Shown here one piece after another: positions 60,998-61,732 of a stretch of DNA of 64,000 bases. The position numbers and the translations under genes were made by a program. The notes beneath the pieces are model-generated. The model was not told the DNA's origin, ran no database searches, and saw only the letters and a list, made by a program, of their open reading frames with translations. The stretch's first letter is position 1, and each line of letters begins with the position of its first letter. Source of the stretch: Pseudomonadota bacterium (GTDB lineage Bacteria > Pseudomonadota > Alphaproteobacteria > Paracaedibacterales > CAIOTO01); contig JAZKAK010000003.1 in NCBI GenBank assembly GCA_040389165.1, forward strand, positions 12,931 to 76,930, given 5' to 3'.

Positions 60998-61732
60998 ATG
61001 TTTTTGACTATCACTACAAACGCTCTCAAAATAATGCTGCTCAGTATTTATATGCTCACACTGCTCAACGCAACAGAACTGAATGAGGTGGAGAACGTAA
61101 AAATAACAACAGATGCCGCCGAAAAAAAGCCATTCGTCTTTAATCCAGAGGCCACCGAATTTCAACCAACTGACGCCACGTGTGCGGATATCGACGTGAG
61201 TGATGATGAATTAACGCAAAATCAATTCACTTGGGAACCCGAGTGGACCTATCTTAATTGGACGTATCCCACATGCCACTATTCCAACGACATGAAACCC
61301 ACAAAAACAATCAAGAGACTTGCAAGAGAGCTCGCACGAACAATAACCACGATGGATCCACGAGCCATTGCGAAAGCCTATATTACGTTAGGAGATGCGC
61401 ATGCGAATCATGAATACAAAATTCAGACACATTATTACAACGTTGCCCTTAATATTGCATGCCATCTCAATGACACAGAGCTTTTAGAAAGGGCCTATGT
61501 TGCTTTAGGAGATACGATATACGGAGACCTGCAATGCATAGAAAGTATCGTGTGGTATTTTGAAGCCTTTCAATTAAGGCATGCGAAACATATAGTTACT
61601 ACTGCTCAAAAAAAAATAAAAAAAATAAAATGTGTGTTAAGTGATGCACGTCTGAGAGGCGATTTGGATGCCTATCAAACACAGGCAATCAAAGCATTCT
61701 TTCCACAATTGGCGGCATGCTATTTACGTTAA
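60998..61732 (+). CDS. Hypothetical secreted/anchored protein with a PAM2-like motif and TPR-like helical repeats
   Basis: Track ORF starts at 60833 inside repeats. The likely ATG is 60998 (MFLTITTNALKIMLLSIYMLTLLNA). FNPEATEFQP at aa 48-57, followed by AKAYITLGDAH.../ERAYVALGDTIY helical repeats. Confidence 0.5.
   Translation: MFLTITTNALKIMLLSIYMLTLLNATELNEVENVKITTDAAEKKPFVFNPEATEFQPTDATCADIDVSDDELTQNQFTWEPEWTYLNWTYPTCHYSNDMKPTKTIKRLARELARTITTMDPRAIAKAYITLGDAHANHEYKIQTHYYNVALNIACHLNDTELLERAYVALGDTIYGDLQCIESIVWYFEAFQLRHAKHIVTTAQKKIKKIKCVLSDARLRGDLDAYQTQAIKAFFPQLAACYLR

Follow-up and report, generated by a model that had tools for sequence, protein, structure and literature searches.

A conserved PAM2-like peptide in a family of small TPR-like bacterial proteins with signal-peptide-like N-termini: a candidate mimic of a host docking motif

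We asked whether a bacterial protein could carry a copy of PAM2, the short peptide by which eukaryotic proteins such as Paip2 and eRF3 dock on the MLLE domain of the poly(A)-binding protein (PABP). The question was raised by a 64,000-nucleotide stretch of a Pseudomonadota bacterium (assembly GCA_040389165.1, contig JAZKAK010000003.1; hereafter the window), in which the first-pass annotation had noticed a near-canonical PAM2 motif, with Phe for Leu, just after the signal or anchor sequence of a small protein. Translation bore this out: the motif FNPEATEFQP occupies residues 48-57 of a 244-residue protein (61139-61168, + strand; codons TTT AAT CCA GAG GCC ACC GAA TTT CAA CCA) and lies 21 residues past the signal-peptide-like N-terminus. 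It agrees with the consensus LNxxAxEFxP at positions 4, 7, 9, 10 and 12, and has Phe for Leu at the hydrophobic position 3. In PAM2, Asn4 stabilises a β-turn, Ala7 points towards the MLLE surface, which leaves no room for a bulkier side chain, and Phe10 is the main determinant, replaced by Trp in LARP4 and LARP4B (PAM2w); the Leu pocket of MLLE is able to hold Phe too (PMC7356810). The PAM2-C motif of eRF3 has the sequence F76-V77-P78-N79; its Phe76 occupies the Leu pocket, and Pro78 is stacked against Phe567 of MLLE (PMC2854688). As set out below, we lean towards the view that the 244-residue protein is a bacterial PAM2 mimic that would be functional in binding the MLLE domain of host PABP. 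Readings of the peptide as an NPF motif for EH domains or an FxNPxY motif for PTB domains were ruled out, since its homologues have no Phe after NP and no Tyr at +3.

Is the motif kept in relatives of the protein? When 1.8 billion cluster representatives were searched exhaustively with HMMER, five small relatives and two fragments came out, followed by long tetratricopeptide repeat (TPR) proteins; a word-indexed search using the protein alone as query gave no match beyond itself. The family comprises seven genes from six samples, namely the window gene and six genes from five other metagenome samples (about 25-46% identity); the samples are SRR26324622, SRR28201392, SRR22387980, ERZ27263722, JGI 3300010885 and JGI 3300059473. 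The family profile found no relative in GTDB species genomes or JGI metagenome contigs, and a motif-independent DNA pattern for the block W.Y.NW.YP...Y..D had no match in metagenome contigs. At the position of FNPEATEFQP in the window gene, the homologous segments read LNPNAIEFIP, which is canonical, in P0009 (contig L001), LNPQAQEFKP in P0008 (a JGI sample), FNLQAPEFIP in P0006 (contig L002), LNPGAAKFYP in the L084 gene, FDTNAQELSP in P0007 (contig L003) and LNPNADDWKP, a Trp variant of the kind found in the PAM2w of LARP4/LARP4B, in a paralogue on L003. The pattern [LF]N..A..[FW].P is thus present at the homologous position in six of the seven genes; the P0007 copy is degenerate, the most so in the family. 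Ala7, Pro12 and Leu or Phe at position 3 are found in all seven, Asn4 in six and an acidic residue at position 9 in six; position 10 is occupied by Phe five times and by Trp and Leu once each, and positions 6, 8 and 11 are free. The fixed positions (3, 4, 7, 9, 10 and 12) are those that define PAM2, and the variable ones (6, 8 and 11) are its x positions.

The conservation is confined to the motif within its linker. Mean pairwise identity is 0.51 over the motif (residues 48-57), compared to 0.115 in the upstream linker (26-47) and 0.106 in the downstream linker (58-82), and no other 10-column window of the linker scores as high, the median being 0.11. The block at 83-106 and the helical domain at 107-244 reach 0.51 and 0.42, respectively. 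The first-pass annotation had made its claim depend on conservation of the motif in orthologues, and conservation is what was found. The synonymous codons of the conserved Ala, Pro, Asn and Leu differ among the homologues, indicating that selection acts on the peptide and not on DNA or RNA structure; a DNA- or RNA-level cause of the conservation was thereby ruled out. Since relatives preserve the peptide and not the linker around it, the motif is probably a tool for binding the mRNA and translation machinery of a host.

The genomic settings of the relatives differ. L001 is syntenic with 34-40 kb of the window (ParB-ParA-GidB-PhaC-Na/H exchanger-RNase HII; ParA 88% and GidB 56% identical), and is a contig of a related bacterium that has the P0009 gene at another place than in the window. 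L084 also encodes orthologues of the HAD hydrolase (86% identical) and of the 847-residue neighbour (48% identical) of the window. Its family gene (1402-2132) is split by a frameshift into two halves, P0015 and P0010 (products of 107 and 126 residues), and is either a pseudogene or the result of an assembly error. On L003, P0007 (1154-1852) is followed by a highly diverged tandem paralogue (2003-2674, +; E = 4e-16 to the family profile), which is about 25% identical and retains LNPNA..W.P. After the duplication the two copies, one with a degenerate motif and one with the Trp variant, may have come to divide their tasks.

We then asked how far the motif exceeds what is expected by chance. In Pfam, PAM2 is family PF07145, with a gathering cut-off of 20 bits that is an operational and not a biological criterion; Paip2, as a positive control, scored 33.9 bits. 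For 30-residue peptides the scores were 28.2 bits for P0008, 19.3 for P0009, 18.5 for P0006 and 13.4 for the window copy, and the three other copies were not reported. P0008 is thus the only relative above the cut-off, P0009 and P0006 being borderline, and PAM2 is also listed for P0008 among the precomputed Pfam matches of the collection, marked as faint. Near-matches to PAM2 can still be functional: the PAM2-like motif of Unkempt is one position off the ELM expression, and its deletion released PABPC from the UNK complex (bioRxiv 10.1101/2023.09.20.558714). We used three patterns of increasing strictness, the loosest being an ELM-type pattern that approximates the LIG_PAM2_1 expression. In a six-frame translation of the whole window the latter occurs at four places, which are this motif and three in the open reading frame (ORF) 15680-18097. 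Per-protein shuffles of the window proteome (45 ORFs, 17,527 residues) gave expected numbers of 0.44 for the ELM-type pattern, 0.04 for [LFP]N..A..[FY].P and 0.0055 for N..A.EF.P, a pattern for which the earlier rough estimate was well below one. As an empirical control we searched the ORFs of 80 other proteobacterial loci (356,622 residues), where the middle pattern also took Trp at position 10 and the strict one was [LF]N..A.EF.P; there were six, one and no matches, respectively, and all six loose ones were of a weak Ser or Trp type. Taken alone, the match of the window motif exceeds chance only moderately.

The decisive evidence comes from the relatives, and it bears on the reading that the resemblance is due to chance and has no function, its conservation being an artefact of aligning few short sequences. 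Such a reading can point to the 0.44 loose matches expected per window proteome and to the window copy lying under the Pfam threshold. It would also have to account for a strict pattern expected only 0.0055 times, for recurrence at the same aligned position although the flanks share about 11% identity, for synonymous codon changes, and for a motif retained in a paralogue of about 25% identity. We regard it as close to refuted and very improbable.

What kind of protein carries the motif? The 244-residue protein is identical to NCBI MES2252152.1 ('MAG: Pseudomonadota bacterium', a metagenome-assembled genome with locus-tag prefix V4482; 85-kb contig), which is annotated from Met13 (61034). The longest ORF of this frame opens upstream, at 60833. 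We prefer Met1 at 60998, because the start positions of all homologues align with it and AGGA is located 7 bases 5' of this ATG; the NCBI start cuts away the n-region of the signal peptide. From N to C the layout is a signal peptide, a disordered linker with the PAM2-like motif, a Trp/Tyr-rich block and a TPR-like domain (Table 1). The N-terminus looks like a Sec signal peptide: Ala25 is invariant across all homologues, most members have LNA/x, and P0009 has a classical ASA/S site. An AlphaFold run with the family alignment (a single-sequence run was uninformative) gave residues 22-87 a predicted local distance difference test score (pLDDT) under 50, with values of mostly 80-93 beginning near residue 100, and a positive charge-hydropathy index placed residues 26-82 on the disordered side. 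The motif is thus predicted to sit in an accessible, disordered segment, and not in a folded or buried one, which agrees with the acidic, probably disordered setting proposed in the first-pass annotation. Across residues 83-106 the pLDDT climbs from 44 to 86, and this block probably caps the folded domain at its N-terminal end. It is conserved as strongly as the PAM2-like motif and has no known counterpart.

The TPR-like repeats proposed downstream of the motif stood in part. There was no direct Pfam TPR match for the 244-residue protein; the phmmer relatives of its C-terminal domain are long repeat proteins carrying Pfam TPR_12, weak PDB profile matches were to GPSM2/LGN and designed TPRs (E 0.009-0.1), and the best Foldseek matches were LGN TPR-peptide complexes (E about 0.01, TM-score about 0.4). 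On L001, the gene at 1-2655 (-) encodes a 1166-residue GerE/NB-ARC/TPR_12 protein, a possible source of the TPR module of the family.

These fold matches also bring in the main competing explanation, in which the conserved peptide is a ligand of another partner (the protein's own TPR-like groove, bound intramolecularly or between paralogues, or a periplasmic or envelope protein) and its likeness to PAM2 is coincidental. TPR domains commonly bind extended peptides, the LGN complexes include an auto-inhibited form, a Sec-type signal suits life in the periplasm, and no secretion system was seen in the window. The coincidence would, however, have to extend to six determinant positions, to the same three free positions and to the Phe-to-Trp variant. 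Moreover, in the AlphaFold model the motif is not docked on the TPR domain (pLDDT 38 over residues 41-60), and two unrelated proteins of the window have motifs of similar type but lack this TPR domain, one of them with three copies at its C-terminus. We consider this explanation unlikely, though by no means negligible.

If the peptide is instead a PABP ligand, the gene product would be a small protein exported by an alphaproteobacterium that associates with eukaryotes, and after export the disordered N-terminal arm of the protein would present the PAM2 mimic, ahead of a small TPR-like module. The peptide would lodge in the MLLE (PABC) groove of host cytoplasmic PABP, with Phe48 (or Phe46, as in the F-V-P-N of eRF3 PAM2-C) in the Leu pocket between α3 and α5, Asn49 forming the β-turn, Ala52 packing on the MLLE surface, Phe55 in the α2/α3 pocket and Pro57 stacking on an MLLE phenylalanine. 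It could thereby compete with host PAM2 proteins (eRF3, PAN3, Tob, Paip1/2, LARP4 and ataxin-2), and the TPR-like domain and its ligands would be tethered to poly(A) messenger ribonucleoproteins (mRNPs). Translation or mRNA turnover in the host would change as a result.

Table 1. Features of the 244-residue protein gene and possibly related motifs in the window; positions are those of the window
Feature	Residues	Position	Strand	Basis or remark
Gene of the 244-residue protein		60998-61732 (stop included; stop codon 61730-61732)	+	ATG 60998
Sec-type signal peptide or anchor, predicted	1-25	60998-61072	+	hydropathy; K11, hydrophobic 12-23, LNA/T
Acidic, indel-rich linker, predicted disordered	26-82	61073-61243	+	pLDDT, charge-hydropathy, low identity
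Extended PAM2-like motif FVFNPEATEFQPT	46-58	61133-61171	+	sequence, PF07145, conservation island
Conserved block W.Y.NW.YP...YP.DMK.TK.IK	83-106	61244-61315	+	identity 0.51, pLDDT rise 44 to 86
TPR-like helical repeat domain	107-244	61316-61729	+	phmmer, PDB profile, Foldseek, pLDDT
LNPSATKFAT of the 847-residue signal-peptide protein (58063-60606)	80-89	58300-58329	+	possibly related
Three tandem 14-residue units SDLNA[IM]AP[AV]Y[AK]P		15794-15916	-	near C-terminus of the 805-residue orphan; possibly related
Peptide, window: KKPFVFNPEATEFQPTDAT				
Peptide, P0009: HPCTCELNPNAIEFIPTSPA				
Peptide, L003 paralogue: KHILNPNADDWKPNNT				

We also examined the neighbouring genes. The adjoining 847-residue protein has KLLNPSATKFATP at residues 78-90 (58294-58332), a PAM2-like core with Thr instead of Pro at position 12, and its L084 orthologue (5833-8364, -; about 48% identical) keeps that segment as QLLNPSATRFATA (core LLNPSATRFATA). 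In the window the pattern [LF]NP.A..[FYW] is confined to these two adjacent genes, compared to 0.035 occurrences expected; as the pattern was chosen after seeing the data, this result is a lead and not a test. The first-pass annotation had called the neighbour an OTU-like protease, a label that had no match in Pfam, NCBIfam, a phmmer search of PDB or a two-sequence PDB profile. What stood is the conservation of two loops, PDGMCGEHS (Cys284) and GPGHYDKF (His814), which lie about 530 residues apart, are both kept in the L084 orthologue, and resemble the Cys and His loops of OTUB1. The segment ELSGWLPCDSSYTQLWAIINNLNVFVFS is nearly invariant between the 847-residue protein and this orthologue. 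L084 also encodes (10068-11627, -) a 519-residue protein with a faint IQ-motif match.

The neighbour suggests a further reading, in which the peptide is a real MLLE ligand, with a UBR5/HYD-type E3 ligase instead of PABP supplying the MLLE domain, which would tie in the ubiquitin-directed activity suspected for the OTU-like protein. ELM lists the MLLE domains of HYD E3 ligases, besides those of PABPs, as PAM2 receptors (PMC3245074). An adjacent gene with OTU-like Cys and His loops and a PAM2-like core of its own would fit; the OTU assignment, however, is without support from database searches, and the evidence does not discriminate between MLLE domains. Fewer protists have UBR5 than have PABP, which counts against such a receptor. 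We judge this reading improbable, more so than a ligand of some other partner.

On the other side of the motif gene, the 2-oxoglutarate (2OG) oxygenase noted earlier was confirmed as a 2OG-Fe(II) oxygenase by domain matches to DIOX_N and 2OG-FeII_Oxy (61840-62868). It likewise begins with a signal-peptide-like sequence, and thus three consecutive genes on the same strand (58063-62868) all look exported. The G+C content of this stretch is 0.38-0.40, compared to 0.42-0.44 in the 12 kb before it. No tRNA gene was found at the island, and no promoter or terminator signal above shuffled background.

The second protein of the window with PAM2-like motifs is an 805-residue orphan (15680-18097, -), for which a homologue search found none. 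It carries a signal peptide, a long Lys/Glu-rich stretch, the array with a further, degenerate unit GDRNAIRSLYSIS, and an acidic tail. The array copies (LNAIAPAYAP, LNAMAPAYAP and LNAMAPVYKP) fit the looser pattern only and not N-x-x-A-x-E-F-x-P, and score 14.5 bits with PF07145. They are 2.7 copies of a 42-bp unit repeated in tandem, with 91% match, and therefore count as one event and not three. The first-pass annotation had counted four full pattern matches in the window, which was overstated. A broader proposal would be that the Sec-signal proteins of this organism (the TPR-like family, the OTU-like neighbour and the coiled-coil protein with three tandem motifs) all dock on host PABP by PAM2 mimicry. 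We offer it tentatively, at somewhat less than an even chance.

Could the organism meet a eukaryotic cell? Interspersed among ordinary alphaproteobacterial genes of the window (MurC, MurB, MurG, LpxI, FtsZ, ParAB and a threonyl-tRNA synthetase 57-71% identical to those of alphaproteobacterial metagenome-assembled genomes) are an ankyrin-repeat protein, a patatin-like phospholipase, a DXD glycosyltransferase and several signal-peptide orphans. The synthetase places the organism in the Alphaproteobacteria and no more finely than that. The ankyrin, patatin-like and DXD glycosyltransferase genes, together with the OTU-like neighbour and its own LNPSATKF, suggest a bacterium that deals with eukaryotic cells. 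Candidate host-directed genes lie at 648-3143, 7707-10103, 10659-12755, 22198-23331 and 32283-33539; the set comprises an 831-residue protein with a DXD glycosyltransferase region, a 798-residue ankyrin-repeat protein, a patatin-like phospholipase and two large orphans without a Pfam match.

Several points weigh against a PABP-directed mimic. Host association, and with it the existence of a host, we infer from a few domain types, and the same window encodes functions of a free-living type (a TonB-dependent receptor, a polyhydroxybutyrate (PHB) synthase and an O-antigen ligase), so that an obligate intracellular life is not implied. A Sec signal alone delivers a protein only to the periplasm, and no type II, type IV or type I secretion system is visible in the 64 kb; export past the periplasm, and a route of the 244-residue protein to the eukaryotic cytosol, are presumed. 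MLLE binding is putative. The window copy stays below the PF07145 cut-off, and the P0007 copy is degenerate. The motif came from a scan that presumably covered many windows and motif types, in which case some strict matches would arise by chance. Finally, the conservation statistics rest on few sequences, as the family is tiny.

Translation termination, deadenylation and translational control all converge on the MLLE domain of PABP, whose docking peptide is known to be copied by viruses. Our literature search found no bacterial PAM2 mimic. A conserved bacterial PAM2 family, if confirmed, would add bacteria to the pathogens that mimic a motif at this hub. Its naturally occurring variants of the peptide, with Phe at position 3 or Trp at position 10, would be of use for probing MLLE specificity, and the motif would provide a simple sequence handle for effectors in uncultured symbionts whose secretion systems and hosts are unidentified. 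If several proteins of the organism dock in this way, they would be the first bacterial effector repertoire targeting MLLE by PAM2, and a new bacterial way to reach host mRNPs.

Finally, we compared the family with known systems. With eukaryotic PAM2 (Paip1/2, ataxin-2, eRF3, PAN3, Tob and the PAM2w of LARP4/4B) it has in common the 12-residue signature with its fixed and free positions, the alternation of Phe and Trp at position 10 and the siting in disordered regions. The window copy FVFNPEATEFQP is nearest in pattern to eRF3 PAM2-C (F76-V77-P78-N79-V80-H81...F85), whose register is echoed by F46-V47-F48-N49. Unlike eukaryotic PAM2, it is found in a bacterial gene, directly behind a Sec-type signal and in a family without a eukaryotic homologue, and it differs from typical eukaryotic copies in its Phe at position 3, its score under the Pfam cut-off and the putative status of its binding. 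Among viruses, Hendra and Nipah P/V/C (LNPAAVPFVP) and HCoV-229E N were shown experimentally to bind the PABC domain of PABP1, and PAM2 mimicry was likewise shown by experiment for the N protein of a torovirus, Berne virus (PMC10132805). There, as proposed here, a short linear motif of a pathogen, placed in a disordered region, copies the PABP-docking peptide of the host, and the viral motifs compete with endogenous ligands (PMC10132805). The viral mimics are made in the host cytosol, whereas the 244-residue bacterial protein must first be exported; unlike them, the bacterial motif is part of a conserved family of genes that also encode a dedicated TPR-like domain.

Among bacteria, the closest parallel in theme is PieF (Lpg1972), an effector of Legionella aimed at host poly(A)-tail metabolism, which binds to CCR4-NOT at its CNOT7/8 module (PMC11774319). 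It differs in being a Dot/Icm substrate with a folded interface to the deadenylase and without PAM2, and PABP is not its target. In eukaryotes, USP10 is a deubiquitinase with a PAM2 motif. TTC3 is also among the PAM2 proteins (PMC7356810). In both, a PAM2 tether is combined with a TPR or deubiquitinase module, parallel to the TPR-like protein and the OTU-like neighbour with its LNPSATKF; there is no sequence homology, and the resemblance is in design only. The case is best classed as pathogen PAM2 mimicry, here bacterial and encoded by a gene family.

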